DNA of 44,205 nt from Desulfurivibrionaceae bacterium (GTDB lineage: Bacteria; Desulfobacterota; Desulfobulbia; Desulfobulbales; SURF-16): assembly GCA_041562995.1 (NCBI GenBank), contig JBFFNX010000002.1, forward strand, positions 1-44,205. The letters are read 5' to 3'. The position numbers were made by a program, and so were the translations under genes. How positions within the stretch are numbered: the stretch's first letter is position 1; each line of letters opens with the position of its first letter. The notes beneath the pieces were generated by a model that did not search any database, had not been told where the DNA came from, and saw only the letters and a program-made list of their open reading frames with translations. Shown here piece by piece: positions 20,705 to 41,518 of the stretch.

Positions 20705-20804
20705 TCTAGGGATCCTAACTTTAACTTTATTCAATGCGTATGGTTCTGTGATATGGTTTGAGGTACTTTTTCTTATCATCATTTAACCCGGTTAAAGGTT
20801 GGCC

Positions 20805-21482: not shown

Positions 21483-21483
21483 C

Positions 21484-25025: not shown

Positions 25026-25076
25026 TACCTCAGGCAATGAGGGGGCACGGCTTGTTGCCGATGTGGAAAGATGGGT

Positions 25077-25988
25077 TTAGAGGCCAGCTTCTTGCAACTC
25101 TGTGAGGAGTTCTTGCTGTTTTTTAGACAACTCTTTAGGGATCTCGATATTGATTTTCACCATGAGGTCGCCTTTAGGGCCTTTGGGGCCTTTCGGCAGA
25201 CCTTTCCCTTGAAGGCGGAGTTTGCCGCCAGCCTGCATGCCGGCCGGAATCTTGACATTAAGCTCTTTGCCGTCCAGGGTGGGCACGGCTATCTTTGTTC
25301 CCAGGGCCGCCTGGCTAAAGGGGATCTTTTTCTCGTAGATAAGGGTGCTGCCATCCTGTTGAAATAGGGCGTGGGGCTGGACGTTTACCTTGAGGTAAAG
25401 ATCGCCTGCCGGACCACCCATCTGGGAGGGGCCACCCTTACCGGAAACCCGGAGTTTTTTACCAGACTCGATACCTGCCGGGATTTTCACAGACACCCGG
25501 TCGTTGATATGGGCCAAGGCAATGGTCCTTTCCGTGCCGCTGGCAACTTCCTCCAGGGTAACCCAGAGCTCCATGATCATGTCTTGACCCTTCACCGCTT
25601 GCTGTTGAAAACCCCTGCTGCCGGCGCAACCGCTGGATTGGGAGAAAAAAGACTCAAAAGGGCTGCCGGAGCCGCCGGCCTGATTGAAACCACCGCCGAA
25701 ATTGATGCCAAACTCGCGGAAAATGGAGCCCAGGTCACTGCCCCGAAAGATGTCCTCCTGGGAATAGCGCTGGGAGAAGCCTGTCGAGCCGTAGGTGTCG
25801 TACTGTTTGCGTTTTTCCGGGTCGGAGAGCACGGCATAGGCCTCGTTGGCCTCTTTGAATTTTTCCTCTGCCGCCTTATCACCAGCGTTCTGATCAGGGT
25901 GGTACTTCATGGCCAATTTGCGATAGGCCTTTTTGATAGCAGCACTGTCGGCTGTTTTATCGACACCTAATATTTTATAATAATCCAT
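25077..25988 (-). CDS. cbpA: J-domain co-chaperone without zinc-finger (CbpA-like, class II DnaJ)
   Basis: 'DYYKILGV...[18 protein letters not shown]' contains the HPD motif. A G/F-rich linker and C-terminal substrate-binding repeats follow. There are no CXXCXGXG repeats. Confidence 0.85.
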
Positions 25989-26058
25989 GGGTTTTTCTAT
26001 TTTTTGTTACAGAAGGTTAAAACAGTAAATAAAGTCAGCAAGTTTTTGTAGTTTCATG

Positions 26059-26087
26059 ACTATAAGATTGGTTGCCTTCTTTGACAA
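26059..26087 (-). promoter_or_regulatory. Candidate sigma-70-type promoter for the J-protein gene
   Basis: On the minus strand: TTGTCA, 17-nt spacer, TATAGT. It lies about 70 nt upstream of the ATG at 25988. Confidence 0.35.
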
Positions 26088-26311
26088 GGATTAGCTGCAT
26101 TCTTGACCCTAAAAGAGTTTGGCCCAATCGTGGTTAAAGTGCAACAGAGAGTTCAGTACAGACCTGTCTGGATCAGATGTGTGATATTTCTGGTGGTCGG
26201 CGGTGGCTGGCTGGGCCCGTGAAATGATGATGTTTGTAGGGCGTGGATAATTTAGGATTTTGGGCCAAGGGTAACAAATTGAGGTACTCAAAAGCCATAA
26301 CCTGGCGAGGA

Positions 26312-26968
26312 TCAGGATGAAATTTTCTCCAACAGGTTGATTTCGCCGATAACAACAAGCACATCCCCTTCGCAAAGCGTGTCATCAGCCTTAGGGATAA
26401 AGGTGTATTCTCGTTCCCCCTTTCTTCGCGTGGCAATCACCTGGATGCGATACTGGTTGGTCAGGTTGAGCTCGCGGAGGGTTTTCCCTTGCCATTGCAG
26501 GATAATCATCTCTTTAACGACCATTTCCTTGTTAAAGGGGAAATGGTCGATAAAACCTGGGATGGTAATGCGGTTTGCCAGCTGTCTGGCCGCCATATGC
26601 TCAGGAATGACGACCTCATCAACACCGATTTTTTTCAGTAATTTTGCATGATCGCCATTGGTTGCTTTCACCCAGACCAAGGGGACGCCCAGTTCTTTAA
26701 GGTACATGGCAATCATGGCACTGCCAGCGATGGAATCACCAATGCTGATTAGGACGTGGCTGAGGTCGGCGATCCCCATCTGGACGAGGGCCTCTTTGTT
26801 GGTCGCATCCGCCTGTAGCACTTGGGTAAAGATGCTCTGGGCCTGGTGGACGTATTTGGGGTTTAGGTCGACACCAAGGACGTTCACACCGGCATTGGTC
26901 AAGACCTCGCCGAATTTATAACCAAATTTGCCAAGTCCGATGACACCGACCTGAATGAATTTTGTCAT
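26312..26968 (-). CDS. ktrA: K+ uptake system RCK/NAD-binding subunit (KtrA/TrkA-type)
   Basis: 'VGVIGLGKFGYKFGEVL' Rossmann motif, and a TrkA_N plus TrkA_C layout in about 218 aa. GGAGAA SD before ATG 26968. Confidence 0.88.
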   Translation of the reverse strand: MTKFIQVGVIGLGKFGYKFGEVLTNAGVNVLGVDLNPKYVHQAQSIFTQVLQADATNKEALVQMGIADLSHVLISIGDSIAGSAMIAMYLKELGVPLVWVKATNGDHAKLLKKIGVDEVVIPEHMAARQLANRITIPGFIDHFPFNKEMVVKEMIILQWQGKTLRELNLTNQYRIQVIATRRKGEREYTFIPKADDTLCEGDVLVVIGEINLLEKISS

Positions 26969-27015
26969 GGTAATTCTCCATGTATGTGTTCTTGCTCGCA
27001 AAGCAAAGTTTTACT

Positions 27016-28383
27016 TCAACCAATCAGCATGTTTTTTTGGGGCCATTGGTAGAATAATTCCTGGTGAAATCCGTGGATGGCGGCGAGCAGGAGTAAGGGT
27101 CCCAGGCGGCCGATGAACATGAGGGCGGTAATGATCCATTTGCCGGCAAGAGAGAGCTTGACGGTGAGGCCGGTGCTTAATCCCACGGTGCCAAAGGCAG
27201 AGACCACCTCAAATAACACCTCAAGGAAGAGCCCCCTGGCCTGGGGATGGGGAATGTCGCCGCCCTCGGTCATCATCAGGGCCAGGGTTGCCGTAAAGAC
27301 GATAACCATGGCAAAAACAGCAAGGATCAGGGCCTTGGACACGGCATCATCCTCCACCGCGAATTTGTTGATAACGACCTGCCGTCTTCCCATCAGCTGG
27401 GCGCCCACAAAGGCGCCCAGGACACGGAAGGTTGTTACTTTGATCCCGCCGGCACAGGATCCGGGGGCACCGCCGATCAGCATGAGAATCAGCATGACCA
27501 GCAGTGAAACATTGGTCATCTGGCCGATGGCGAGGGTGTTGAAGCCGGCGGTGCGGCAGGTCACTGACTGAAAGAGGGCGGTGAGGATGGATTCGTGGAG
27601 GGGGGCGTTGCTGTGTGCACCGATAAATTCAGCCAGGAAAAGGGCAACAGCGCCGATCCCGATTAACAGCAGGGAGGTTTTGATAACGGTGCTGGAATAC
27701 CAGCTCAGTCCAGGGGGCTTGTTGGCTTGAGCTCCTCGTGTTTTGGCGGCAACGCTATGCTGCAATTCGATGAGCACCGAAAATCCGAGCCCCCCCAGGA
27801 CGATAAGGATCATAAAAACGATATTGATCCCCCAGTTACCTTTCAGGGCCATGAGGCTCTGGTCATGCAGAGAAAAACCGGCGTTGCAGAAGGCAGAAAC
27901 CGCATGAAAGAGGGCGGAGTAGAGGGAGAAATGCTCTGGGGCCATGATGAAAATGAGCAGAGCGCCCAGCCCCTCAATAACAAAGGTCCAGAGGACAATG
28001 GCCTTGAGAACGCTCCCCATGTCAAAGGTTCGATCATGGAGAATGGTATGCCCCACCGCGATTCGGTCGGTTAACGAGATTCTGTGCCTCAAAAAATAAA
28101 AGGCCAGACTGGTAAAAGTCATGATGCCCAGGCCGCCGATCTGGATAAGGACAAAAATAACGTTTTGGCCAAATCTGGAAAAAAAGGAGCCGGTGCTGAC
28201 CACGCTGAGGCCGGTGACGCACACGGCAGAGGTGGCAGTAAAAAATGCATCCGGCCAGGAAAGGGGAGACCCGCTGGTGAAGCTTACCGGTTGGTGCAGA
28301 AGCAGGGCGCCGATGCACAGGGCCAGGCCAAAGAAGAGAACGGGCAGGGCAATGGGTGGAATGGTCTTTCGTCGGTGCGACAT
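27016..28383 (-). CDS. ktrB: K+ transporter membrane subunit (KtrB/TrkH family)
   Basis: Polytopic membrane protein with repeated pore-loop motifs ('TATSAVCVTGLS', 'AVSAFCNAGFS', 'SVTCRTAGFN', 'VVSAFGTVGLSTG'). ATG at 28383; an alternative TTG is at 28443. Confidence 0.88.
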   Translation of the reverse strand: MSHRRKTIPPIALPVLFFGLALCIGALLLHQPVSFTSGSPLSWPDAFFTATSAVCVTGLSVVSTGSFFSRFGQNVIFVLIQIGGLGIMTFTSLAFYFLRHRISLTDRIAVGHTILHDRTFDMGSVLKAIVLWTFVIEGLGALLIFIMAPEHFSLYSALFHAVSAFCNAGFSLHDQSLMALKGNWGINIVFMILIVLGGLGFSVLIELQHSVAAKTRGAQANKPPGLSWYSSTVIKTSLLLIGIGAVALFLAEFIGAHSNAPLHESILTALFQSVTCRTAGFNTLAIGQMTNVSLLVMLILMLIGGAPGSCAGGIKVTTFRVLGAFVGAQLMGRRQVVINKFAVEDDAVSKALILAVFAMVIVFTATLALMMTEGGDIPHPQARGLFLEVLFEVVSAFGTVGLSTGLTVKLSLAGKWIITALMFIGRLGPLLLLAAIHGFHQELFYQWPQKNMLIG

Positions 28384-28461
28384 GGGCTGGGTATGCTTGG
28401 TGCTAAAATGCGTGGCGAGAAATGATGGCCTTAATGGTTCCAAACGGATAGCGATCAGGCT

Positions 28462-28484
28462 CCTGGCAATAACAAGATGCCAGG
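28462..28484. repeat. Inverted repeat CCTGGCA-N9-TGCCAGG
   Basis: 7-bp perfect arms in the usp/ktrB spacer. Confidence 0.4.
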
Positions 28485-28532
28485 GGCCGGATCGATATCG
28501 AGAAGTAAAGGGGGAGACAAGAGGATCCGCCC

Positions 28533-29402
28533 TTATCGTAAAATCAGCACAGAGGATTGACTGTGGTTAACGAGCTTACCCACGAGATTTGGGGAGAATA
28601 TTTTGCCAAGCAGTGATTTCTTGCCCATCCATAAGGCCACCATGTTTTCACGGCTGACCTCTGCGACGTATTCTTCAAGGTCTTCCGGGCGGACCAGTTT
28701 GATCCAGGCATTGATCTGCCGTTCGGCATAATATTTCAATATCTGTGCGATGCTGTTCTCAACGCCGGCATTGCCCTCTGTGCCCTTGTTATCGGTAAGG
28801 CCGACTATTTTCAGCTCAGCCTGGTAGAGGGTGACGATCTGATTAATCATCTCCAGTGATGACTGGCTGACATGGGTCTGGTCAAGGCAACAGGTAATGG
28901 TGGTGGGTACTTTCTTTTCCTTGATGACCACCACGGAACAAGCCGCCTTTTTGGCAACCTTCTGGGGCAAGTCGACTTCTCCCTTCCATTGGCTATCGAG
29001 ACCCTTGGTGCAGCCGAGAACAATAAGGTCTGACTCTTGCTCACGCGCTTCAGCCAGGATTTCCTTGGCAGGATCACCAACCCGTATTTTTAACAACAAA
29101 TTTTTCCGAGAGGCAACTGCAGGTTTGTGGTCGGTAAGCTCCCATGAGCCGTTTTTCAGGATGAACTCTTGATTGTCGGCATTCCCCCCATAGGGGAGGT
29201 CGTTGGCATCGAACAGACTGATAAAATCTTGTCGGTATTGATGGAGAGTTTTCACAAGTGCTTCGTCAGGTTTGTTGTCTGGGCCTGCTGGCTGTACTGC
29301 CAGCAGGGTTATGTCCGCCCAGGTATTTGCCGCAAGTTTTGCCACCTCGCCGACAATCGTTGCACTATAAGAATGCATGTCTAAAGCTGTTATTATTCTC
29401 AT
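28533..29402 (-). CDS. Tandem universal stress protein (2x Usp domain)
   Basis: 289 aa with two Usp-like halves ('MRIITALDMHSYS...DLIVLGC...VVVIK' and '...MVALWMGKKSLLGKIFSPNLVGKLVNHSQSSVLILR'). GAGGAA SD. Confidence 0.8.
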   Translation of the reverse strand: MRIITALDMHSYSATIVGEVAKLAANTWADITLLAVQPAGPDNKPDEALVKTLHQYRQDFISLFDANDLPYGGNADNQEFILKNGSWELTDHKPAVASRKNLLLKIRVGDPAKEILAEAREQESDLIVLGCTKGLDSQWKGEVDLPQKVAKKAACSVVVIKEKKVPTTITCCLDQTHVSQSSLEMINQIVTLYQAELKIVGLTDNKGTEGNAGVENSIAQILKYYAERQINAWIKLVRPEDLEEYVAEVSRENMVALWMGKKSLLGKIFSPNLVGKLVNHSQSSVLILR

Positions 29403-29404
29403 GA

Positions 29405-30217
29405 TTAATTCCTCGCTTTATTTTGGCAGAGCAGGATTGGTGATGGGCATTGGGCAAGCAGTTCAAGCCTGGGGCTCTTTCTGACCGGAAATGATGAGGC
29501 CACCAATCGGTATTTCTTCAGCATTGCCGCAACGCCTTCAGGGGTTCCGGACACCACCATGCTGTTGGCGGGCGTTATGTTAGCCTCCTTTAAGAGTGCT
29601 TCTGCCTCGACAAGGACGCTGCCCGCCTCTTCCTTATTTATGGAGATGGTCGCTTCCGTTTCCTGGTAACGATAAAAAATAAGGTCAAAATGAATGGATT
29701 TACCCTTGAGCAGGCTAAGCGCACGAGGGATCACCGTATTATGGTCAACGCCATCACCGCAAAGCAGGGCAACAGAGTCGCTTGCGACCAAGTTCTTGAC
29801 CACCAGGATTGGACATGGTGTTTTGCTGTAGAGGGGGGAAGATATCAGTCTATAAAAATCGGTGATATCGGAGGTGTTTAAGTTGCCTTCGATAAAAAGA
29901 TCGTAGCCGCCGTTGCGCAGTTCTTCCAGAAACGCATTGTCCCGATCACCGATGAGAACTTTTGGCGAACCAATAAAGGGACACGGGACTTTTTCCGTAT
30001 TCAGCAGACGTTGGACAGCCTGATGACCCGCCTCCAGCAAACCCCGCTCCCAGGTGCGCCGCACCCAACCTGTGCCTCCAGAGTGTCTTTTTTTGTCTGG
30101 CACTTCCACATGACCTGCCTGCAACTGCAGAGCGAGAATTTCCACCAGTTGTGATGCATATCTGAGGGCAATGCTGGAAGGGAGATTTTCATCCAAAGCT
30201 AGAAGACCCATATTCAT
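29405..30217 (-). CDS. Divergent tandem Usp-like protein
   Basis: About 270 aa with two alpha/beta Usp-like halves ending '...CPILVVK' and '...SPILLC'. No clear G-x2-G-x9-G(S/T) ATP motif is visible. Start at 30217 (AGAGGT SD); the ORF-track ATG is at 30244. Confidence 0.55.
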   Translation of the reverse strand: MNMGLLALDENLPSSIALRYASQLVEILALQLQAGHVEVPDKKRHSGGTGWVRRTWERGLLEAGHQAVQRLLNTEKVPCPFIGSPKVLIGDRDNAFLEELRNGGYDLFIEGNLNTSDITDFYRLISSPLYSKTPCPILVVKNLVASDSVALLCGDGVDHNTVIPRALSLLKGKSIHFDLIFYRYQETEATISINKEEAGSVLVEAEALLKEANITPANSMVVSGTPEGVAAMLKKYRLVASSFPVRKSPRLELLAQCPSPILLCQNKARN

Positions 30218-30258
30218 ATCAATTACCTCTTTCTTTCCTGCCATGAGACATGGCGTGG

Positions 30259-30648
30259 TTATAGGGTTTGTCTTATTTTTTGTTCCGCTTTGCTGATAAC
30301 CGCACTGATTTCACCAATCTTGAACGGTTTTGCTAGAAAATCAAAAACACCTTTTTGAAATGATTCCTTGGCGGTTTCCATGGTGGCGAAGCCAGTGATC
30401 ACAATGATCTCGGTGGCGGGTGATTTTTCTTTGACCGCGGTGAGAAACTCCATGCCGTCCAGACCTTCCATTTTCAAGTCGGTGATGACGATATCAAAGG
30501 AACGTTCATTGGTCCGTTTCAGGGCCTCGGCGCTGACCGTAAAGGTTTCAACCTCGTACCCCTGTTTTTCCAGGGATGGTTTGAGACGTTTGCTGACTAT
30601 GGGCTCATCATCGAGAATCAGGATGCTGGTTTTTTGTTGGGCGCTCAT
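30259..30648 (-). CDS. Stand-alone response regulator receiver
   Basis: 129 aa. 'ILILDDE', 'DIVITDLKMEG', 'VITGF' and 'AKPF' are present. The start ATG overlaps the upstream stop (ATGA). A GGAGG SD precedes it. Confidence 0.9.
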   Translation of the reverse strand: MSAQQKTSILILDDEPIVSKRLKPSLEKQGYEVETFTVSAEALKRTNERSFDIVITDLKMEGLDGMEFLTAVKEKSPATEIIVITGFATMETAKESFQKGVFDFLAKPFKIGEISAVISKAEQKIRQTL

Positions 30649-33212
30649 ATGTTTACCTCCATGAGTTTGTTGAATTTATCTATGTATAGATTTATGTGTT
30701 GCTCGCTCAGCATTTTCACATCAAGCTGCCGGGTGAAACCGACCAGCCAGCCGAGCACTTGCAGGCGCTGTAACATGCCTTCTTTGTCCATTTTTTTAAT
30801 GCGGGCCACGACCAGATCGTCATGCAGCTCAACCCGGAAATCATGGCGGGCCAAGACGCGCCCCAGAAATTCTGCCCGCCGGCAGCGTCTGGTCTCGTCT
30901 GTCACCCCGCCAAAAAAACGGAAATAGGCATAGTTGTCGTTGATGTTATCGGTCACATAGCTGTCGATCATGGTGAAATGATAGCCCAGCCGCAGACTGA
31001 CATTGGCATATTCTTTCGAGATCACCGCCAGGTTCTGGCCAACATATTTGGGTGATGCCAGTTCCGTTGAGAAGGTCCTGGTCAGGCTGGACATGAAACT
31101 TCTCATATCCACCGACATGGGCTCATTGTCCCAGGCCAGTGGATGGCTGAGGCCCTTCAGAAGGGCCAGCATGGGTACCGAGAGGATCGCCTCCGGCATT
31201 ACCTCGCCTTTTCGGGAGCCTGACCGCAGCCCGCCATCAATGTCGATTAGCACGAGGTCAAGCGGAATGTTCAACCGCAATTTGCCGGAGGTGGTCTTCG
31301 GATCATGTTGTTGGTAATAATTGCGGTCAATAAGTTCTTCCACGGCCTTTTCATGGACAAAACGGGTAATATCATGAAGAGTGCGGCAGGCCACTGGCGT
31401 AAAACTCTTTTCTGCCGGATCCAGAAGGTTGAGCGGGGCAATATTTTTCAGCACCCTCCGTAACAGCCTGTACTCCGAGGTTTCCTCAATGGCTTCTTCG
31501 CTCAGTTCATACAAGCAGAGTTCATTGACCAGGCCTTGATAGACGATATTGGCCTCGGCATCGACGGTGATCTCCTGGCCAGGATGCAGGAGCTCGGTGG
31601 CATTGCCGGTATTGACAATGCACGGTACCCGAAACTCCCTGGCAATGGTGGCCAGATGTCCGGTGGGTGAGCCAATATCAGTCAGAATGGCGCTGACCTT
31701 GGCCATGACTTTAGCGAGCAGAGGTGACGCAAAGCGGGTCACCAGAATGGCCCCGGCAGGAACGTCACGAAGCTTTGAGTCCTCGGAGAACATATAGACT
31801 TGACCCGTAGCAACACCGGCCTGGGCAATTTCCCCCTGATCACGGAAGAGAACCGGGTACTGACGAAGGAGTTTGGCAAGCTCAGGGGCCTTGGGTGCAT
31901 CTGTCTGGTCAATATTTAAGGGCCGGGACTGAAGGACGATGACCTGGCCTTGCCTGTCAATGGCGAACTCAATGTCCTGCGGTTTTTTGAAATATTTCTC
32001 GATAAGCAGCCCTGTTGCCGCAATCTGTTTAATTTGGTCGTTATTGAGGCAAGCCTGGGTTTGCCGGTCAATGGCTACCGGGTTCAGGGCCGTGCCGCCA
32101 CCAGCAATCGGGTTGAGAGCTGATTTCTTACGCACCAGTTGCATTTCTTTGACATGGTGAGGGCTAGTGCGGTCGATGGTAAAGCGATCGCCACTGACTT
32201 GCCCAGATACGACCGGAGCGCCGAGACCCCATGTGGCGCTGAGTTGCATGGCCCCGCCATGGCCATGCTGAGGGTCAAGGGTGTACAGAACTCCGCTGGC
32301 AACAGCGGCAACCATAACCTGGCAGGCGACCGCCATTGTTACTTCGTCTTCGTGGAAGCCAATTTTCTGGCGATACATAAGGGCAGTTTCACTGTAAGCG
32401 CTGGCCACCACTTGGCGGTAGGCGTTAGCAAGTTCTGCGGCCGGAACATTGAGAATAGTTTTATATTGACCGGCGAAACTGCGTTCGCCATCTTCGCCCC
32501 AGGCACTGCTTCGGACTGCGAATAATACTGGTTTGTGTTTGTCGCTGCCGCTCAGCTGCCCCAGGCTGCGGGTGAGTTCCTTCTCCAGCTTGTTCGGCAG
32601 TTTACTGTTGAGAATAAGTTTTCGGATCTTTTTGGTAGCATCTTCCAGAGAAACTTTTTCGTCTCTCCAGGCCCCGAGAATTCCGTCAATATTCTCCTGT
32701 AGATTATTCTTTGCAAGAAACGCGTGAAAGGCGGCGCCGGTCACCGCAAAGCCGTCAGGTATTCTTAAGGCGAGGAAATTGTGAATTTCCGCAATGCTTG
32801 CATTTTTACCGCCCACCGATTCCGAAGAGTTACGGTTGATGGCGTTGTATGCGACGGTAAAGGGCCCAAAATGACAGTAAGGACGGCCTGCCAAATCCTT
32901 TTCGATCTCTGCTACGATTCGCCGATAAGTGTCGTGCAGTGCCATGTATTTATTAGGCGCGATGGTGTTAAGATCATGAATGAGTTTCAACACCTGGTCG
33001 CTTATCCGTTGACAGGTGGTTTCGATATAATGGCGGTCAAAGATATAATTGCCGCCTAATTTGTCATTAACTTCAGCAATCATTTCCAGAACATTGTTAT
33101 TGATGGTCAGTATGTCCTGAAATTTGCTGAATAGAACCGAAAAGGGCACAGCAGCGGTCATTGCTCTCTTGCGTGGCAATAGCTCAATGATATTTTTAAT
33201 TATTTTTTTCAT
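30645..33212 (-). CDS. PpsA-like protein: ATP-grasp (PPDK_N) + phosphohistidine swivel domain + non-canonical C-terminal domain
   Basis: 'GGKNASIAEI', 'VRSSAWGEDGERSFAGQY' and 'QDIEFAID' belong to the PEP synthase nucleotide-binding domain. 'TDIGSPTGHLATIAREFRVPCIV' is the swivel His. The last roughly 290 aa lack the 'GTNDL' and 'CGE' motifs of the PEP/pyruvate TIM barrel. The first ATG is at 33212; a TTG at 33296 is possible. Confidence 0.8.
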   Translation of the reverse strand: MKKIIKNIIELLPRKRAMTAAVPFSVLFSKFQDILTINNNVLEMIAEVNDKLGGNYIFDRHYIETTCQRISDQVLKLIHDLNTIAPNKYMALHDTYRRIVAEIEKDLAGRPYCHFGPFTVAYNAINRNSSESVGGKNASIAEIHNFLALRIPDGFAVTGAAFHAFLAKNNLQENIDGILGAWRDEKVSLEDATKKIRKLILNSKLPNKLEKELTRSLGQLSGSDKHKPVLFAVRSSAWGEDGERSFAGQYKTILNVPAAELANAYRQVVASAYSETALMYRQKIGFHEDEVTMAVACQVMVAAVASGVLYTLDPQHGHGGAMQLSATWGLGAPVVSGQVSGDRFTIDRTSPHHVKEMQLVRKKSALNPIAGGGTALNPVAIDRQTQACLNNDQIKQIAATGLLIEKYFKKPQDIEFAIDRQGQVIVLQSRPLNIDQTDAPKAPELAKLLRQYPVLFRDQGEIAQAGVATGQVYMFSEDSKLRDVPAGAILVTRFASPLLAKVMAKVSAILTDIGSPTGHLATIAREFRVPCIVNTGNATELLHPGQEITVDAEANIVYQGLVNELCLYELSEEAIEETSEYRLLRRVLKNIAPLNLLDPAEKSFTPVACRTLHDITRFVHEKAVEELIDRNYYQQHDPKTTSGKLRLNIPLDLVLIDIDGGLRSGSRKGEVMPEAILSVPMLALLKGLSHPLAWDNEPMSVDMRSFMSSLTRTFSTELASPKYVGQNLAVISKEYANVSLRLGYHFTMIDSYVTDNINDNYAYFRFFGGVTDETRRCRRAEFLGRVLARHDFRVELHDDLVVARIKKMDKEGMLQRLQVLGWLVGFTRQLDVKMLSEQHINLYIDKFNKLMEVNI

Positions 33213-33408
33213 TACTACATCTTCCGGTTCTTGCTGTAGGTGTGGTTGCTGTGCCTGGTTGGACGGGTGTGATTTGGTGGCCTCTTTCCCATGCAATGCT
33301 GCTGCATGGGAAAGGGGCCTGGATTCATGTTGACAGTAGTGATTATAGCGTAAAAATACTTGCTACTTCCATATCCTGCTTGAAACTAAGTAACAGTGTC
33401 CACCTTAA

Positions 33409-34176
33409 TTAGTGGGCACCGCTCTTACCCTTGAAGGCGATGCCCATGAAAAGACCTGCCATGACCGCGATCGCCACTGACATGATGCCGAACCAGAGTC
33501 CATTGCCATACGCCATTTTAGAAAGTTGTTGTGGAAATCCCACCTGTTGCAGGGTCAATGGCTTGCTGGAGCTGCCTATGATGCTGCCGTCCTGCAGCGC
33601 AGCCACCTCGACGGCATAATCTCCAGGTTTCATGTTGGATGGTATAGACATCGTGGTCTCATAGGATTTTATCCCGCCTGCTTCCGGACCATAGCTTACG
33701 CCACCGGGTGTGCTTGAATAGAGGGCATCCTTGCTCTTGAGACGGATAAACTCCTGCAGGAGGAAATCATTATCACTGCTTGCTGGAGATATTTCGATGC
33801 GGCTTTTCAGGGCTGGGAAGCCGAAATCCTGCGCCGCTGAAGTATCCAGATCCATCAGGCCGCTTCCGGTGGCAACCTTATAAACTTTTGGCGCATTTTC
33901 AAAGATGAGGTCGCTGGTGTTCATCCACAACAGGCCGGCGACTTTACCTTTTCTTTTTAGGTGTAGTTCCTCTCCTTCACCACTCAGCCTTACCACAATC
34001 TCGGCCGCTGCAGGGATTTGGCCAGTTACCTTGACGGTGGTACCGTTATAAAAGGTGCCGATATCCACGGTTTCCGGGGTGAGGTTGATGTCCAGGGTGG
34101 CCCCTTTGGCATTGCCACTCTGTAGCCAGAGGCCAGTCAGCAGAATAAAAAAGTATAATTTATGGTTTTTCTTCAT
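33409..34176 (-). CDS. TIGR02186/Alph_Pro_TM-like membrane protein (signal peptide, periplasmic domain, C-terminal TM)
   Basis: 255 aa. Signal peptide 'LYFFILLTGLWLQSGNA', 'GLLWMNTSDLIFENAPKVYKV', 'MKPGDYAVEV' and the C-terminal helix 'LWFGIMSVAIAVMAGLFMGIAF'. The family assignment is from memory of the profile. Confidence 0.55.
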   Translation of the reverse strand: MKKNHKLYFFILLTGLWLQSGNAKGATLDINLTPETVDIGTFYNGTTVKVTGQIPAAAEIVVRLSGEGEELHLKRKGKVAGLLWMNTSDLIFENAPKVYKVATGSGLMDLDTSAAQDFGFPALKSRIEISPASSDNDFLLQEFIRLKSKDALYSSTPGGVSYGPEAGGIKSYETTMSIPSNMKPGDYAVEVAALQDGSIIGSSSKPLTLQQVGFPQQLSKMAYGNGLWFGIMSVAIAVMAGLFMGIAFKGKSGAH

Positions 34177-34177
34177 T

Positions 34178-35113
34178 TTAGTGCCCTCCCTTCATGGCAA
34201 TCATAAAATCAGGGGTCATAAGGAGACCAGCCAGCATCTTCACGCAGACCAGGAGTACAAGGGATGCTAGGAGGATTTTGAGTTGATCACCCTTCAGCTT
34301 TTTGCTGACCTTGGTGCCAACTTGGGCGCCAAGGGTTGAGCCGAGTAACAGCAGAACAGCCAGGACAAAGTCCACGGTATGGTTGGTCTTCGCCTGCATG
34401 ATGGTGACATTGACACAGGTGAAGAGAATCTGGAAAAGGCTGGTTCCTACCACAACATGCATGGGCATGCGCAGAAGATAGACCATGACCGGGACCATGA
34501 TAAAGCCGCCGCCAACACCCATGATCGCCGCGAGCACGCCTACGAAAACGCCCAGAAAAAGCGGCACGAGTATGGAGAGTTCCACCCCCGATTTGTCAAA
34601 ACGGGTCTGGAAGGGGATTTTTTTGAATATCAGTGCGTAAGTGGATTGTTTCTTCGGCGTTGCTGAGATCTCAACCACTTCCGATGCCGTTGTTTTTTTC
34701 AAACTCATCAGGCTTTCGATGAACATGTAGCTGCCAACTCCACCTAGCATCAAGACATAGGTGAGACTGATCAAGAAATCGGCGTTGCCCATGGCGCGCA
34801 GGATCTTGATGAGCTGAACGCCCACCGTGCCGCCGGCAACACCGCCGATCAGCAGCAGCACACCCATTTTGACATCGACGTTACCGAGTCGCCAGTGGGC
34901 CAAGGTGCCGGATGTCGAGGCGCCAACGATCTGATTTGAATCCGAGGCAGCTGCCACGGTGGCAGGAATACCAAACATCATGAGCAGAGGGGTCATGAGA
35001 AACCCTCCTCCGACGCCAAAGATTCCAGACAGGAGCCCGACAAAGCCTCCAAGCCCGAAGATAGTAAGTATGTTCACGCTGTTACCAGCGATGGGAAGAT
35101 ACATGTGCCACAT
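34178..35113 (-). CDS. TauE/SafE (DUF81) family anion exporter/permease
   Basis: Polytopic membrane protein with Gly-rich repeated helices ('GGFVGLLSGIFGVGGGFLMTPLLM', 'LAAIMGVGGGFIMVPVMVYLL'). Start at ATG 35113 with an AAGGAG SD; the longer ORF to 35251 is probably leader. Confidence 0.85.
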   Translation of the reverse strand: MWHMYLPIAGNSVNILTIFGLGGFVGLLSGIFGVGGGFLMTPLLMMFGIPATVAAASDSNQIVGASTSGTLAHWRLGNVDVKMGVLLLIGGVAGGTVGVQLIKILRAMGNADFLISLTYVLMLGGVGSYMFIESLMSLKKTTASEVVEISATPKKQSTYALIFKKIPFQTRFDKSGVELSILVPLFLGVFVGVLAAIMGVGGGFIMVPVMVYLLRMPMHVVVGTSLFQILFTCVNVTIMQAKTNHTVDFVLAVLLLLGSTLGAQVGTKVSKKLKGDQLKILLASLVLLVCVKMLAGLLMTPDFMIAMKGGH

Positions 35114-35185
35114 TGTCTCAGTGCTCCTTTGTTGTTTAGTATTGAAAGTTAAACCACGGTCCTGCATCACATGGTATGGCCCTAT

Positions 35186-35202
35186 TACAGATTTTGTGCC
35201 AG
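35186..35202 (-). promoter_or_regulatory. Weak candidate sigma-54 (-24/-12) promoter
   Basis: The minus strand reads TGGCAC-AAAAT-CTGT. The -24 element is perfect and the GG-to-G spacing is canonical. The -12 element is TGT rather than TGC. It lies about 75 nt upstream of the TauE ATG. Confidence 0.3.
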
Positions 35203-35434
35203 AGTGGTTGCGGGAGGGGGTGCGAAACACTGCTAAGGTATAAAAAAGCACATTAGTTCAGGAGCTTATTGTTTTTTTTAATAAAACGATCGAGGTGGTC
35301 AGGAAAGAAAGGTGACGACAAATGCAGAGCCTTCTGGATTTTCAGGAGAATGGCGAGGATGGTGTTATCTCCTTGTTTTTACGTAATTAGTTTGTTGTTA
35401 TGAGAAGTTGGGAGGATATGCCGAGCTGGGGGGG

Positions 35435-35450
35435 TGTTTCATAATGAAAT
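35435..35450. promoter_or_regulatory. Palindromic repeat copy 1: TGTTTCA-TAA-TGAAAT (candidate activator-binding site)
   Basis: Seen directly. One of three copies in the 658-bp spacer downstream of the NtrC-type gene and upstream of the TauE operon. Confidence 0.45.
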
Positions 35451-35569
35451 TTGTTTATTCCTTTATTGATGGCGTGCTTTGGATAGGGCGGTTGGAGATT
35501 CAGAAACGCAAAAGGGATTATCTTCTTAGCTGCAGGGAGTTATAGGGCAAAAGGGTATCGACTTCGGGA

Positions 35570-35585
35570 TGTTTCAATGTGAAAT
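35570..35585. promoter_or_regulatory. Palindromic repeat copy 2: TGTTTCA-ATG-TGAAAT
   Basis: Seen directly. Its centre is 135 bp from copy 1. Confidence 0.45.
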
Positions 35586-35681
35586 GCGAGGCTATCTGAA
35601 GAGGCCGGGCAGAGCCGACCTGGCAGAGCAGGAGGACTGGCAACTCCCGCAGGGCCTTCTGGGTCAAGGCCCAAGAGAAAG

Positions 35682-35697
35682 TGTTTCAGATTGAATT
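35682..35697. promoter_or_regulatory. Palindromic repeat copy 3 (degenerate): TGTTTCA-GAT-TGAATT
   Basis: Seen directly. Its centre is 112 bp from copy 2. There is one mismatch in the right arm. Confidence 0.4.
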
Positions 35698-35909
35698 ATT
35701 TTGTGTTTAACCAGGATGACAAGGTGAGGGCGGTCGTTGATTGCTGCCGGGATGATGCGAGGAGTTCATGGGAGGGGAAGGGTGGGCGGAAGTGGAGCAG
35801 AGAAGCGAACAGAATGAGAAGTGGAGCGCCGGGGCATGCCCCTGAAGGGGAACCTCTACCTTTCAGCACCATACACATGCCGAAAGCACATGGGATGGAA
35901 GGGTTGGGC

Positions 35910-37274
35910 TTAATTTTTGTCAGATTTATATTCCGGATCCAGGAGCTGGAATTTTTTCATCCGCCGCCAGAGGGTGGTTCGCGGCAGGTTGAGGATCACG
36001 CTGGCTAAGTTCTTGTTGTAGTTAGTTCTCGCAAGGACCTTGGCAATGTGTCTCTTCTCGACCTCTTCCAGGGGCATCAATTGTTCTGGTGGAGCAACAT
36101 TATCCGCTCGTTCCCTAAGCCTGGCCGGCAGATCACGAATCTGGATGCGCTTGGTGTCGGCCAAGGCCACGGCCCGCTGGATAATATTTTCCAGCTCCCG
36201 GACATTGCCTGGGTAGTCGTAGGCGGTCAGGATGTCCATAACCTGTGGGGAGACGCCCTTGATCTGCTTGTTAAAGGCCAGATTAAATTTATCAATGAAG
36301 TGGGAGATAAACAGGGGAATGTCATCGCCACGTTCGGCCAGGCGGGGGAGGTGGAGAGCCACTACATTGAGGCGAAAGAAGAGATCTTCCCGAAAGGTGC
36401 CTTTTTGCACAGCCTCCCGCAGATTTCTGTTAGTGGCGGCGATGATGCGAATGTCAAGATCGATGGGCTGGGTGCTGCCCACCCTCATGATCTGGCGTTC
36501 CTGCAGGACGTGCAGGAGTTTGACTTGCATGGAGGGCGGCATTTCGCCAATTTCATCCAAGAGGACGGTGCCCCCTTCCGCCGCTTCAAAGAGACCGATC
36601 TTGGTTCGGGTGGCTCCGGTAAATGCCCCCTTCTCATGGCCGAAGAGTTCGGTGCTGATCAATTCTTCCGTGAAGCCGCCACAGTTGAAATAGATAAAAG
36701 GATGTTCTTTGCGGGGGCTCAAGGTGTGGATTGCCCGGGCCACTATTTGCTTGCCGGTGCCGGTTTCGGCCTGTAACAAAACATTGCAGTTGACCATGGC
36801 CAGTTTTTTGATCATGGCTAAAATTTCCTGCATGGCTGGGCTGGCGCCCACGAAATCGGCCATGAGGGTATCCTTGGCCATGGCCACTTTCAGTTTTCGG
36901 TTTTCTTCCTGGAGTTCAATTTTTTCACGGGCCAGTGAGGCAAGAAGGCGGATGTCCTGACGTTTGCACGGCTTATGGATGTAGTGAAAGGCGCCTTTCT
37001 GGGTGGCGTCCAAGGCTGTTTCCACAGAGCCGTGGCCGGTTATGATAATAGCCTCGGTATCCTCCCGAAGTCGTTTCACCTCATTTAAGATAGTAAGGCC
37101 GTCCATGTCCGGCAATTGCAGGTCGATGAAGACAATTGAAAAGGGCGCCTGTTGCATGCGGACAAGAAAAGGGGTGCCGGCCTGGAAGACCTCCACTTCA
37201 AAGCCTTCTTGGTCCAGGACCCGTTTGACCAGTTGGCCTGCTATTTTTTCATCATCAATAACTGCTACTCGCAT
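35910..37274 (-). CDS. NtrC-family sigma-54-dependent response regulator (REC-AAA+-HTH)
   Basis: 'MRVAVIDDE...FIDLQLPDMDG', Walker A 'LLQAETGTGKQ', the 'ELFGHEKGAFTGA' GAFTGA motif, and a C-terminal Fis-type HTH 'NKNLASVILNLPRTTLWRRMKKF'. Confidence 0.92.
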   Translation of the reverse strand: MRVAVIDDEKIAGQLVKRVLDQEGFEVEVFQAGTPFLVRMQQAPFSIVFIDLQLPDMDGLTILNEVKRLREDTEAIIITGHGSVETALDATQKGAFHYIHKPCKRQDIRLLASLAREKIELQEENRKLKVAMAKDTLMADFVGASPAMQEILAMIKKLAMVNCNVLLQAETGTGKQIVARAIHTLSPRKEHPFIYFNCGGFTEELISTELFGHEKGAFTGATRTKIGLFEAAEGGTVLLDEIGEMPPSMQVKLLHVLQERQIMRVGSTQPIDLDIRIIAATNRNLREAVQKGTFREDLFFRLNVVALHLPRLAERGDDIPLFISHFIDKFNLAFNKQIKGVSPQVMDILTAYDYPGNVRELENIIQRAVALADTKRIQIRDLPARLRERADNVAPPEQLMPLEEVEKRHIAKVLARTNYNKNLASVILNLPRTTLWRRMKKFQLLDPEYKSDKN

Positions 37275-38718
37275 TGCTTGTCGTTACCTGTGGCGGTGTT
37301 TCAGAAGCTATTGGCAGTATAATTGAAAAGGTGGTGCCGACATTCATCTCGCTCTTCACCTCGATATAGCCGCCGTGCTTTTTAACTATACCATAAACAA
37401 TGGAAAGCCCAAGGCCGGTGCCCTTGCCGACCTCTTTGGTGGTATAGAACGGGTCAAAGATATGCTCGATATTTTCAGGGGCAATGCCCGTGCCGGTATC
37501 ATTGACATTGATTCTTATATGCCCTGGTGGGTCTTCCTGGGCATCAATATGAATCAGCCCCCCCTTGGACATGACGTGGATGGCATTCAGGAAAAGATTG
37601 AGGAAAACCTGTTGCAGCTTTTGCATGTCACCCCAAATAGGAGGAAGATCTTCCGGAATAGCTATCACAAGCCAGATTGCATTCAAGCGCAGTTCGTTGT
37701 CGATCAATTTTTTGGTGGAAGCGAGAATTTCTTTGATATTGAGGAGCTGGACCAATGGTTTTTTATCCCTTGAAAAGTCGAGAATGTTTTTGACCACCTC
37801 ACTGGCCCGATGTGTTTCGGTAATAATATCGGCGATGATTTCTTGCGCCTCTTCCTGCGAGAGGTCGAGAAAATCCTCGCGCAGGGTTTCAGCCGACAGT
37901 GAGATGTTATTGAGAGGATTGTTGAGCTCATGGGCGATACCTGATGAAAAGGTCCCAATGGCTGCAAGTTTTCTTGACTGGATGAGCTGCTCCTGCCTGT
38001 TGTCGAGTTCAGATGCCATGGTGTTGAAATCACGGATCAGGTCGGTGATTTCATCCTGTTGCGGGCTATGGTAATCCAAGGGCTTAAAATTCCCATTAAG
38101 GATGCTCCTCGTTGCCTGCTGTACAAAGGCGATTCGGTCAAGGACACTTTTGGCCTGCAGGCGCAAGCCAATAATAATAAAAAGAAAGAAGACGCCGGTG
38201 ATTAGAATGAAGCTGGAAATGGTAAACTTGAAACTGTTGCGTATCCTCAGCTGTTTATTGTCCAAGAGCTCTCGGGTTAAGTCCACCAGCGCCTTGCCCT
38301 TCTGGCGTACGCCATTTTTTTCAATGGGGGTAATAGTGCCGTTGGTACGTGAAGAGGTGGAAAAAATATGCCTGTAGCCGACCAGATTGGAGCGAAACTC
38401 ACGGAATTTTTCAAGACCGATCACCCTGACGATATCCTTTTCGTGTTTGCTGATATCGGCATCAATCCTGTCGAGATACTCCATGAGAATCTCAATATTT
38501 TCAGAGCCTACTTGCAGAAAATAGTTTTTTTCGTAGCGGCGAACCTCAAGCACATTGTCGAAAAGATTGTGAAAATCCTCAAGGGTGGTCAGCTTCTTTT
38601 CGATTGAGAAAAACTGATAGGAATAGGCGATAACCAACAAGCCTATAAAGATAAAAATCAGAAAGTTGAGGAGATTCATGCTCTTTCTGAGTGTCGATGC
38701 ATGGGTGGATGGCGTCAT
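37255..38718 (-). CDS. Membrane sensor histidine kinase (2 TM, periplasmic loop, HAMP, HisKA, HATPase)
   Basis: 'SGIAHELNNPLNNI' H-box, 'NLFLNAIH' and 'DTGTGI...GTGLGLSIV'. Its 3' end overlaps the NtrC-type gene by 20 nt out of frame. ATG at 38718; the TTG at 38757 is in the ORF track. Confidence 0.88.
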   Translation of the reverse strand: MTPSTHASTLRKSMNLLNFLIFIFIGLLVIAYSYQFFSIEKKLTTLEDFHNLFDNVLEVRRYEKNYFLQVGSENIEILMEYLDRIDADISKHEKDIVRVIGLEKFREFRSNLVGYRHIFSTSSRTNGTITPIEKNGVRQKGKALVDLTRELLDNKQLRIRNSFKFTISSFILITGVFFLFIIIGLRLQAKSVLDRIAFVQQATRSILNGNFKPLDYHSPQQDEITDLIRDFNTMASELDNRQEQLIQSRKLAAIGTFSSGIAHELNNPLNNISLSAETLREDFLDLSQEEAQEIIADIITETHRASEVVKNILDFSRDKKPLVQLLNIKEILASTKKLIDNELRLNAIWLVIAIPEDLPPIWGDMQKLQQVFLNLFLNAIHVMSKGGLIHIDAQEDPPGHIRINVNDTGTGIAPENIEHIFDPFYTTKEVGKGTGLGLSIVYGIVKKHGGYIEVKSEMNVGTTFSIILPIASETPPQVTTSNASSSY

Positions 38719-38864
38719 ACTCTTCTTGCTCCAGTGGTAACCCTCACAATTCAACAACGGAAAATGGTGCAGTCGGGCCTATAATAGAAATCATCGGGAC
38801 CAGGTCACTAGATCTGAGGTGACAAAGGATAGCCGCTGCAACGGTTTCAGAAAAAGGACAACAT

Positions 38865-38914
38865 CCCTGCCCCGTTGTCAACGTCTTCCTTCAAGTTGGG
38901 AATGCGGGGCAGGG
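38865..38914. repeat. Inverted repeat CCCTGCCCCG ... CGGGGCAGGG (10-bp perfect GC-rich arms, 30-nt spacer)
   Basis: Seen directly in the spacer between ssb and the sensor kinase gene. Confidence 0.45.
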
Positions 38915-39053
38915 TTGGGGATATAGGCTACGACTTGCTTTTTTGGCAGAGAGCAGTGAGGGCGGTGCGCAAGGAGCTGCTCAGGGATAGTGTGGCAAAT
39001 AGATTTGGCTGTATCTATAAAGATGTCTTTGTTTAATGTTGCTCATGGTGCCC

Positions 39054-39090
39054 ATAAAAAAAGGGAACCTTAAAAAAAGGTTCCCTTTGT
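39054..39090 (-). terminator. Rho-independent terminator after ssb
   Basis: AAGGGAACCT (39061-39070) pairs with AGGTTCCCTT (39078-39087). On the minus strand a T-run follows. Confidence 0.7.
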
Positions 39091-39111
39091 GGTTACGGTA
39101 TTTGAGAAACC

Positions 39112-39525
39112 CTAAAACGGAACATCATCACCCATCCGTGGTTCAGCTGTGGGGGGCTCATTATAGGAACCACCGCCACTGCCACCGCCGCCCTGGTTGG
39201 GTTTGCTGTCGAGCATCTTCATCTCCCGGGCAACAATCTCTGTGGTATAGCGCTTGTTACCGTCCTTGTCATCCCATTGCCTGGTCTGGATCCGACCCTC
39301 AATATACACCTTGGAACCCTTAGAAAGATACTCACCGCAGATCTCGCCCAGGCGGGCAAAGGCGACCACGCGGTGCCATTCTGTTTGCTCCTGCTGAGCG
39401 CCAGACTGATCCTTCCAGCGTTCGGTGGTGGCTACATTGAAATTGGCAACGGCAGAACCGTTTTGGGTGTAACGAACCTCTGGGTCACCGCCGAGGTTGC
39501 CAATGATGATTGCCTTATTAACCAT
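39112..39525 (-). CDS. ssb: Single-stranded DNA-binding protein
   Basis: The OB-fold N-terminus '[37 protein letters not shown]', a Gly-rich linker and the acidic tail '...DDVPF'. AAGGAG SD before ATG 39525. Confidence 0.95.
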
Positions 39526-39758
39526 GAATGTTTTCTCCTTTGACAAAAGTCATAATCATAGAAATGACATACCAATAATAAGGGTATGCCGATCCGATGC
39601 GTAACGTGTGACAGAATACAAAAACTTAAGAGGATAGCCAATCAAAAAAGATGGGGTGTGTAGCAATAAAAGAGAGGATCCGATGAATGCCTTACGCCGG
39701 TAATGATGAGGCTGAAAAGTATTTATCTGACCAGGAAGATAGCAGGCGCATTCAGGTC

Positions 39759-40889: not shown

Positions 40890-41056
40890 GGGCCACCATA
40901 GACCAGGGCATGCTCTTGGTCAACAACGAGAACCTTTTGACCATGGTGATAGTCCTTAAAAAGATCTCGGTACCAGGACCAGGAACCGCTCAAGAAGGGA
41001 GGCGAGCGGCTGAGACGGCGATAGAGATAAGCTCTGTGTCGCTGGCCAACAGTGTT

Positions 41057-41518
41057 TTATGAGGCCCGCAACCTTTTTTGGCGGCGCTGGATGGCTTCTT
41101 TGTTGCGGCGCTGTTCTTCAAGGGTCTGGAAAACGGGCTGGGGCACCGCGCAGGGCACGCCCTTGTCATCAAGGGCCACAAAGGTGAGGTAGGCCGAAGC
41201 GATGTGATTTACCCGACCGCTGGTTAACTCCTCCTCTTCAACCCGGACCCCGATTTCCATGGAGGTCCGGCCCACCATATTGAGGCTGGCCTTGAGAAGC
41301 AGGAGGTTGCCAATGGCCACATGGTTGTGAAATTCCAGGTTGTCAAAGCTGCGCGTTACCACCATACAGCGGGCATGGCGGCTGGCCACCACGGCGGCGG
41401 CCTCGTCAATATACTTGGCAACGGCGCCGCCATGGACAAATCCCATGGGGTTGCCGTCCTTGGGCAGCATGAGGTGGGCCATGGTAATGGCCAGTTCGGA
41501 TGCGGGGTGCTCAGGCAT
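41057..41518 (-). CDS. Acyl-CoA thioesterase (hotdog fold, YciA-like)
   Basis: 'MLPKDGNPMGFVHGGAVAKYIDEAAAVVA' and 'VVTRSFDNLEFHNHVAIGNLL...GRTSMEIGVRV' are present. Start at 41518 with a GAGGAA SD; longer forms to 41569 or 41629 are possible. Confidence 0.78.
   Translation of the reverse strand: MPEHPASELAITMAHLMLPKDGNPMGFVHGGAVAKYIDEAAAVVASRHARCMVVTRSFDNLEFHNHVAIGNLLLLKASLNMVGRTSMEIGVRVEEEELTSGRVNHIASAYLTFVALDDKGVPCAVPQPVFQTLEEQRRNKEAIQRRQKRLRAS

Follow-up and report, generated by a model that had tools for sequence, protein, structure and literature searches.

The window analysed here, a stretch of 44,205 nt (contig JBFFNX010000002.1, positions 1 to 44,205, GenBank assembly GCA_041562995.1) from a Desulfurivibrionaceae bacterium, carries ten consecutive, co-directional minus-strand genes at 26312-38757. 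It is very probable that this block is a non-chance gene set in which eight genes form a conserved, sigma-54-controlled module without the other two, ktrBA. The eight encode a sensor histidine kinase (HK), an NtrC-type enhancer-binding protein (EBP), a TauE permease, a TIGR02186 protein, an enzyme resembling phosphoenolpyruvate (PEP) synthase (PpsA-like), a single-domain receiver (REC) and two proteins resembling universal stress proteins (USP1 and USP2). The overall explanation that we prefer, with some confidence, is an eight-gene signalling/transport module with ktrBA as a separate neighbour. No published description of the conserved arrangement was found in the searchable literature; each of its components, from the sigma-54 two-component system and the TSUP permease to the His-swivel ATP enzyme, the receiver and the USPs, is of a known kind. 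The pairing of the PpsA-like enzyme with a receiver is the surprising element of the module.

Conservation of the eight-gene module

A profile of the PpsA-like protein was run over the GTDB set with one genome per species, which gave at least 575 confirmed matches, paralogues included. Eighty loci with flanks of up to 10 kb were fetched (L-numbers), and the presence of each gene was counted only in loci with sufficient flank (assessable loci). These loci come from Desulfobulbaceae, Desulfobacterales, Desulfatiglandales, Syntrophobacterales, Desulfarculaceae, Desulfohalobiaceae/Desulfovibrionales, Desulfacinum, Desulfurivibrio and Nitrospirota. In tblastn searches with the window proteins, the order and strand HK-NtrC-TauE-TIGR02186-PpsA-like-REC-USP1-USP2 are kept in nearly all 80 species-level loci, with identities of the PpsA-like protein to that of the window ranging from 84% down to 45%. 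TauE is found in all assessable loci (67/67), followed by TIGR02186 (74/75), REC (73/75), USP2 (54/59), USP1 (60/71) and NtrC (45/60); the HK lies upstream on the same strand in 41 of 50. TauE is also the most conserved protein of the cluster, with 71-93% identity across orders (tblastn), next to 65-87% for the receiver, and TIGR02186 and the USPs fall to 30-40%.

The initial annotation, made from the sequence alone, had proposed the whole block as one regulated module and suggested a synteny search across phyla. Conservation reaches many Desulfobacterota orders and Nitrospirota, beyond close relatives, and the proposal holds for the eight genes from HK to USP2 but not for ktrBA. A chance juxtaposition of independent small operons might be read from the three gaps, 150-800 nt long and bearing stable hairpins, that divide the block into sub-blocks, but it is extremely improbable, given that order and strand are kept over 80 species-level genomes in two phyla and that an inner core of the module recurs in distant high-GC genomes.

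Nine loci (L032, L036, L038, L039, L044, L046, L047, L050 and L054) carry a second histidine kinase, 34-38% identical to the HK of the window, after USP2 or REC. In some of them it coexists with the upstream HK.

Gene content and packing

Open reading frames (ORFs) were called and then scanned against Pfam and NCBIfam (ORFs at 19.7-43.4 kb). All coordinates are those of the window. The features of the block are:

37255-38757, minus strand: sensor histidine kinase with HAMP, HisKA and HATPase_c domains (Pfam)
35910-37274, minus strand: NtrC-type sigma-54 EBP with REC, Sigma54_activat, AAA_lid_14 and HTH_8 domains
35437-35449, 35572-35584 and 35684-35696, no strand assigned: three candidate upstream activating sequence (UAS) palindromes, TTTCA-N3-TGAAA
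35186-35201, minus strand: putative sigma-54-type promoter, TGGCAC-AAAAT-CTGTA
34178-35113, minus strand: TSUP/TauE permease (Pfam TauE, E = 3e-48)
33409-34176, minus strand: TIGR02186/Alph_Pro_TM protein (Pfam, NCBIfam, hydropathy)
33213-33408, minus strand: spacer between TIGR02186 and the PpsA-like gene, holding a hairpin with a 17-bp stem (fold z = -2.8)
30645-33212, minus strand: PpsA-like enzyme of 855 aa with PPDK_N and PEP-utilizers domains
30259-30648, minus strand: single-domain receiver, REC (Response_reg, E = 4e-29)
29405-30244, minus strand: USP1, divergent and tandem-USP-like (profile-profile match to the USP2 family)
28533-29402, minus strand: USP2, a tandem USP whose N-terminal half matches Pfam Usp
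28384-28532, minus strand: spacer with a long stable hairpin 3' of USP2 (fold z = -4.0)
27016-28383, minus strand: ktrB, TrkH family (Pfam, NCBIfam)
26312-26968, minus strand: ktrA, TrkA_N and TrkA_C domains (Pfam, NCBIfam)

The initial annotation had counted eleven genes where we find ten. The overlaps and gaps that it listed are all reproduced: HK and NtrC overlap by 20 nt, TauE and TIGR02186 lie 1 nt apart, the PpsA-like gene and REC overlap as ATGA, USP1 and USP2 are separated by 2 nt and ktrB and ktrA by 47 nt, and the large gaps are those at 35114-35909, 33213-33408 and 28384-28532. Its domain calls recur in Pfam and NCBIfam as well, except for USP1, which has no Pfam match. This packing goes beyond chance because the gene order is kept across the 80 loci. 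A scan of 26000-39300 against Rfam (E ≤ 1) returned no RNA family, and so neither the long spacers nor the region upstream of ktrB has a riboswitch.

Two-component pair and probable sigma-54 control

The HK has two transmembrane (TM) helices around a helical periplasmic domain of ~135 aa, followed by HAMP, HisKA and HATPase_c (Pfam, hydropathy). Its best NCBIfam matches, AtoS and ZraS, score under the family cut-offs. The NtrC-type regulator, with its GAFTGA motif at residue 216, likewise stays under every cut-off for a named system (AtoC: 403 vs 714 bits). In having an adjacent HK and REC-AAA+(GAFTGA)-HTH_8 regulator, palindromic upstream sites and a putative -24/-12 promoter, the pair resembles NtrB/NtrC-type systems such as AtoSC and ZraSR. 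It differs from them in that TTTCA-N3-TGAAA was matched to no described system here and in that the HK-led operon of distant genomes lacks an NtrC-type gene.

Alignment with relatives exposed three copies of (G)TTTCA-N3-TGAAA(C) in the 797-nt spacer between NtrC and TauE. Of 67 loci, 60 have the palindrome in this spacer, usually in 2-3 copies ~82 bp apart, and its density there is 2.4 per kb compared to 0.10 per kb elsewhere in the loci, a 24-fold difference. The spacer copies align across L001-L007. These palindromes are candidate UAS (enhancer) sites for the NtrC-type regulator. A palindrome with an N4 spacing was tried as well and rejected: it is enriched only ~2-fold (0.21 vs 0.09 per kb), so N3 is the correct spacing.

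Closer to TauE, ~75-90 nt upstream of its ATG, lies the promoter element of the window. A strict sigma-54 pattern gives no match in the NtrC-to-TauE spacer of the window, and the element was recognised via the spacer alignment with relatives, in which it aligns with a canonical TGGCAT-N5-TTGCW in L002-L007. A TGGCAY-N5-TTGCW-type promoter scoring at least 9 of 11 occurs in 53 of 69 loci. Because the spacer has both the conserved palindromes and a -24/-12 promoter in most loci, the regulator pair can be linked to the TauE operon. No -24/-12 promoter was found upstream of the PpsA-like gene or the HK in a scan of the loci.

Within the operon, the gap upstream of the PpsA-like gene measures 196 nt in the window and holds the 17-bp stem hairpin (33290-33335, minus strand; z = -2.8), with neither a T-run nor a -24/-12 promoter. 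In other loci this gap is mostly 8-120 nt, with a few of 200-370 nt. As it is usually below 120 nt elsewhere, the TIGR02186 and PpsA-like genes are likely co-transcribed.

In three Desulfobacter loci (L065, L067 and L070), where an NtrC-type gene converges on USP2, the interval between the two holds two further palindrome-like copies 23 bp apart, ~7.1-7.2 kb downstream of where TauE starts, so that the regulatory layout appears to have been rearranged in this genus. The initial annotation had seen neither the sigma-54 promoter nor the UAS, nor the PpsA-like-REC fusions and the five-gene core described below.

Stress-protein-like genes

USP1 gives no Pfam match even at E = 10. It is counted as USP-like because the profile of its orthologue family aligns end to end with that of the USP2 family (hhalign probability 95.8%, E = 8e-9, full length). 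In USP2, residues 2-161 match Pfam Usp (PF00582; E = 9e-13). The ATP motif G-x2-G-x9-G-[ST] of the UspFG/MJ0577 class is absent from both, which makes their earlier description as degenerate USPs a fair one.

All-against-all clustering of the ORFs in the loci yielded a single other recurrent family, an extra single-domain USP of ~145-155 aa (Pfam Usp, E = 2e-13) in 33 loci (within L014-L079). It lies between promoter and TauE and is the first gene after the sigma-54 promoter, for instance ~460 nt upstream of TauE in L045. The clade of the window (L001-L007) lacks it, and no remnant was found at 35114-35909 of the window. The ~480-nt 'leader' between promoter and TauE in many loci had been considered as an RNA element and proved to be this gene.

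ktrBA and the edges of the block

The initial annotation had placed KtrBA inside the unit. Among 81 loci (the 80 fetched plus the window), ktrAB occurs in four, on either side of the cluster and mostly on the opposite strand. It is found near the cluster in L011, L014 and L017, and L062 carries a lone ktrB fragment. In L001, the closest relative (84% identical), it is absent: this locus is collinear with the window except for a 2.08-kb indel (window 26363-28439 vs L001 14767-14783) that holds ktrB and most of ktrA. Since L001 keeps ~50 nt matching the 3' end of ktrA, the indel is likely a loss in L001 rather than a gain in the window.

The hairpin 3' of USP2 (28455-28505, minus strand; z = -4.0) has no clear T-run. 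Its sequence is kept in the ktrBA-less L001, where the indel begins just beyond it, and it is probably the site at which the conserved operon has its 3' end or is attenuated. Like the hairpin upstream of the PpsA-like gene, it may act as a terminator, in processing or as a stability element. Upstream of ktrB, neither a TTTCA-N3-TGAAA palindrome nor a correctly spaced -24/-12 element was found. The hairpin loop does contain a sigma-54-like element, TGGCAT-N7-TTGCC (28465-28485, minus strand), which is probably non-functional because its GG-to-GC spacing is 12 instead of 10. KtrB and KtrA themselves look like ordinary members of the KtrAB system, with KtrB scoring slightly below the TIGR00933 cut-off (310.7 vs 331), yet only in a few lineages are they syntenic with the module, and no regulatory link between ktrBA and the module was found. 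ktrBA is a lineage-specific neighbour beyond the terminal hairpin of the operon, outside the conserved module.

Against this background, a single regulated potassium/ion/energy-stress module of all ten genes is improbable. It would account for the co-directional position of ktrBA, for the 149-nt gap without a clear terminator T-run or a promoter of its own, for the loci with ktrAB or its fragment near the cluster and for the stress-linked BON-domain proteins that distant contexts carry in place of USPs. It does not fit the rarity and variable placement of ktrAB, its clean absence from the closest relative, the stable hairpin that parts ktrB from USP2 even where ktr is missing, or the lack of regulatory elements before ktrB. 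The ion/energy-stress label attached to the block earlier is unproven, because ktrBA does not belong to the unit; the sole expression data found (see below) point to sulfur-compound metabolism.

The upstream edge of the block is formed by a strong terminator after ssb (39088-39060). Further out, the genes on either side (19754-25988 and 39112-43384) have no apparent connection with the module; among them are SAICAR synthase, a FeeM-type N-acyl amino acid synthase adjoining an FAD-binding oxidase, a nitroreductase, a thioredoxin-fold/TPR protein, a DnaJ/CbpA-like protein, the single-stranded DNA-binding protein SSB, a spore-photoproduct-lyase-like radical SAM protein, a thioesterase and RF3.

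The PpsA-like enzyme

The PpsA-like protein consists of a conserved N-terminal domain of ~115 aa, an ATP-grasp domain (PPDK_N, E = 4e-82), a swivelling phospho-histidine domain (PEP-utilizers, E = 3e-19) and a C-terminal domain of ~275 aa. Residues 1-115 and 580-855 have no counterpart in Pfam. Alignment of the ATP-grasp and His domains to the PEP synthase structures 8a8e, 9dae and 2ols extends to residue ~567-585, and His519 of the TGH motif is invariant in an alignment of 14 sequences and at least 90% conserved in one of 66. Nonetheless, the protein scores under all NCBIfam cut-offs of its relatives, i.e., PEP synthase (339 vs 598 bits), PPDK, rifampin phosphotransferase and PigC/RedH. With these enzymes it shares an N-terminal ATP-grasp and a mobile phospho-histidine domain, in the order of PEP synthase and with the catalytic His kept. 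Unlike PEP synthase and PPDK, it lacks the TIM barrel and has its own N-terminal and C-terminal domains instead. Rifampin phosphotransferase (ATP-grasp, rifampin-binding domain, C-terminal His) differs in its domain order, as the His domain of the PpsA-like protein follows directly after ATP-grasp, and in its rifampin-binding domain, which is missing here (NF041857 score 237 vs a cut-off of 999). It further differs from all these enzymes in that a receiver always accompanies it or is fused to it.

Conservation is strong in the C-terminal domain, for instance in the motifs NLAVISKEYANxSLRLGYHF and FRFFGGVTDxxRRSRRA. Past residue ~585, neither Pfam nor the PDB sequences gave any match, to the C-terminal PEP/pyruvate TIM barrel (PF02896) or otherwise, and the AlphaFold2 model (predicted local distance difference test, pLDDT, 73.7; sheet core > 90) is a mixed alpha/beta fold with no TIM barrel. 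Foldseek searches of this model against the PDB gave no match below E = 0.02 and only TM scores < 0.25; weak matches to DesK were dismissed as noise. A phmmer search against 1.84 billion representatives returned 1133 clusters (488 at E ≤ 1e-30), in which the domain sits almost always at the C-terminus of ~850-aa proteins with the same architecture. As the C-terminal domain occurs almost solely in this architecture, the PpsA-like proteins form a large self-contained family. An exact look-up of the window protein in public assemblies found nothing on record.

Two loci (L004, 14857-20731; L061, 2087-7999) carry two tandem PpsA-like paralogues, 28-38% identical to that of the window, together with a calcineurin-like (PPP-type) phosphoesterase, adjoining the main cluster. 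In L061 the paralogues are flanked by TauE on one side and by a divergent HK on the opposite strand on the other, and there is no NtrC-type gene there. Such an arrangement of kinase and phosphatase hints at protein or metabolite phosphorylation cycles.

The receiver, fusions and a distant inner core

The phospho-acceptor residues of REC (DD / D / T / K) are intact, and the motifs LDDE, TDLKM, ITG and KPF are invariant across 75 orthologues. Family members of ~980-1000 aa are PpsA-like-REC fusions (Pfam), in which the receiver is C-terminal, joined by linkers of 20-35 aa and clearly related to the receiver of the window. Around P0149, one such fused protein, fusions make up ~50 of the 120 best clusters, with identities down to 44%, from which it follows that the fusion is real and old. 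The fusions argue for a direct coupling of the two proteins. They place a C-terminal receiver behind a chargeable His on a mobile domain, as in hybrid histidine kinases, and the PEP-utilizers mobile domain is held in common with Enzyme I of the phosphotransferase system (PTS). Unlike these, the PpsA-like protein has no DHp/CA core and no HPr or Hpt partner.

Six distant contexts of fused and unfused members, on contigs of 60-70% GC, all have the order HK-TauE-Alph_Pro_TM-PpsA-like(-REC)-REC. They have neither NtrC nor USPs, and a second stand-alone receiver often follows. The invariant inner core thus consists of HK, TSUP permease with its periplasmic partner, PpsA-like enzyme and receiver; the Desulfobacterota/Nitrospirota version added a sigma-54 activator and USPs to it. 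At L081-L088, the core is often flanked by Cytidylate_kin2 proteins (P-loop, resembling nucleoside monophosphate kinases), often with a BON domain. In L007, a paralogous set of TauE', membrane protein, PpsA-like' and REC' (25-4605) lies directly upstream of the kinase of the main cluster; its membrane protein, of 229 aa, has no Pfam match.

The TauE/TIGR02186 pair and physiology

TauE (PF01925) has a hydropathy profile consistent with 8 TM helices and a central loop. It resembles TSUP permeases (TauE/SafE/TsaS), which have ~8 TM helices (4+4), in this respect and in the PF09608/TIGR02186 protein that immediately follows it, and differs from them in that this subfamily is unusually conserved (71-93%) and sits in a signalling operon. 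According to its hydropathy, the TIGR02186 protein comprises a signal peptide, ~200 periplasmic residues and one C-terminal TM helix. Its annotation rests on the pairing with a TauE permease. The AlphaFold2 model (pLDDT 87) shows two beta-sandwich domains, for which Foldseek returned only generic Ig-like/ML-like matches (GM2 activator, NPC2, CRIg) and no clue to a substrate. A literature search found no paper mentioning TIGR02186 or PF09608.

Expression data are available from Dissulfuribacter thermophilus, in whose 2026 proteome three adjacent genes are more abundant in thiosulfate disproportionation than with H2 plus sulfite (PMC13490349). These are DITHS69_1990, annotated as TauE (log2 fold change 1.56), DITHS69_1989, annotated as 'TM protein co-occurring with TauE' (1.79), and DITHS69_1988, annotated as 'PEP synthase' (3.40) and placed under gluconeogenesis by the authors (PMC13490349). 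Because of this co-induction and the taxonomic range of the module, the evidence points to sulfur oxyanion handling, not potassium, and the transported substrate is possibly a sulfur oxyanion.

Proposed mechanism

In the mechanism that we propose, the HK would sense through its helical periplasmic domain and phosphorylate the NtrC-type EBP, both being made from a promoter of their own. Phosphorylated NtrC would bind the three TTTCA-N3-TGAAA palindromes in the 797-nt spacer and activate the sigma-54 promoter, yielding one transcript from TauE to USP2. The PpsA-like enzyme would autophosphorylate its swivelling His519 from ATP, and its phosphohistidine and the receiver Asp would exchange the phosphoryl group as in a hybrid kinase. 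The receiver, together with the USPs, would tune the TauE/TIGR02186 transporter, the likely cargo of which would be an anion tied to dissimilatory sulfur metabolism. The exchange between His519 and Asp is proposed because the C-terminal receiver of hybrid kinases accepts phosphate from the kinase's own histidine. In most response regulators with an enzyme output, the receiver is N-terminal. Transfer from the PpsA-like enzyme to the receiver is put forward by analogy and tentatively. That the family is a new class of receiver phosphodonors, in which an ATP-grasp/His-swivel unit replaces the DHp/CA core, the receiver is fused in many lineages but separate in the window, and the relay gates a TSUP/TIGR02186 transporter, possibly for sulfur oxyanions in sulfate reducers and sulfur disproportionators, is a speculative extension. 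To our knowledge, His-to-Asp phosphotransfer from this His domain has been demonstrated for no family member.

Several observations weigh against this mechanism. Regarding its regulatory part, the promoter element of the window and of L001 has GT, not GC, at -12, the palindromes of the window lie 250-500 bp upstream compared to ~75 bp in many loci, and in this organism the operon could be interrupted by the 196-nt gap, with its hairpin, upstream of the PpsA-like gene. Regarding the relay, the single-domain receiver and the receiver of NtrC in the cluster share 38% identity, and in the distant contexts the HK adjoins TauE without a DNA-binding regulator; in this ancestral-looking form, the HK and not the PpsA-like enzyme could be the phosphodonor of the receiver. 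The C-terminal domain of the PpsA-like enzyme, with its Arg-rich RRxRRA and its GYHF, may bind a small-molecule acceptor. Orthology of DITHS69_1988-1990 is likely, as judged from annotations and gene order. We infer from the sequence who phosphorylates whom, what the USPs do and what is transported, and the relay as a whole is a prediction.

A different function of the same eight genes follows from these observations. The PpsA-like protein may be a small-molecule dikinase (ATP + X -> AMP + Pi + X-P) with the receiver as an on/off switch charged by the HK, a reading that we regard as possible and no firmer than that. Its C-terminal domain would then, equally tentatively, bind the cargo of TauE/TIGR02186, e.g., a sulfur oxyanion or sulfonate, for trapping or activation. 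Every characterised relative that we know of (PEP synthase, PPDK, rifampin phosphotransferase, PigC/RedH) has a small molecule as its phosphorylation target, and the PpsA-like protein matches these enzymes in its ATP-grasp and His domains. The similarity of the receiver to that of NtrC and the position of the HK directly before TauE, with the receiver following, in distant contexts fit a dikinase equally well. The strongly conserved C-terminal domain with its Arg-rich motifs also agrees with it, as does the co-induction with sulfur metabolism in D. thermophilus (PMC13490349). On the other hand, the fusions carry the receiver at their C-terminus, which is the layout of hybrid kinases, Foldseek searches of the PDB revealed no known substrate-binding fold that matches the C-terminal domain, and the census of ORF families in the loci revealed no candidate genes of a substrate pathway conserved nearby.

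Relation to described systems

The searchable literature gave no description of the eight-gene unit, in agreement with the initial annotation, which had taken the arrangement to be undescribed. A search for a PEP-utilizing enzyme together with a receiver found nothing relevant, the nearest items being the D. thermophilus proteome and a non-orthologous regulon of D. vulgaris. The latter, DVU3298-DVU3305 (Rajeev 2011; Kazakov 2015), likewise belongs to a sulfate reducer and consists of a sigma-54 two-component regulator of an adjacent membrane/UspA operon. If the cluster were its orthologue, the module would amount to an already described 'general stress' regulon under a sigma-54 three-component system. 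In favour of this one can cite the sigma-54 regulator and HK adjoining an operon of membrane and UspA-domain proteins and the binding of the D. vulgaris regulator to the potassium-uptake (kdp) operon as well (PMC3333781; PMC4641369). Orthology is nonetheless highly unlikely. A Lon-protease response regulator belongs to the D. vulgaris system and has no gene in the window. The motif of that system is GTTGC-N4/5-GCAAC instead of TTTCA-N3-TGAAA, its EBP carries GAFSGA rather than GAFTGA, and its listed targets comprise UspA proteins, membrane proteins and hypothetical proteins but neither a PEP-synthase-like protein nor a receiver. On comparison of the descriptions, equivalence was rejected on the basis of gene set, motif and Lon-protease regulator.

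Significance

With at least 575 PpsA-like matches in species-representative genomes, paralogues included, the module is widespread. Its hosts drive the anaerobic sulfur cycle, and its TauE ranks among the most conserved membrane proteins of these genomes. The PpsA-like family is likely mis-annotated, and proteomics papers may read it as a gluconeogenic 'PEP synthase'. Through the module, the functions of TIGR02186 and of this TauE subfamily could become accessible for the first time. It is moreover a concrete case of a PEP-synthase-like enzyme connected with a receiver, which could reveal a non-canonical entry into a phosphorelay. If the PpsA-like family does act as a receiver phosphodonor, it would represent a second, unrecognised entry into two-component signalling, present in hundreds of species.

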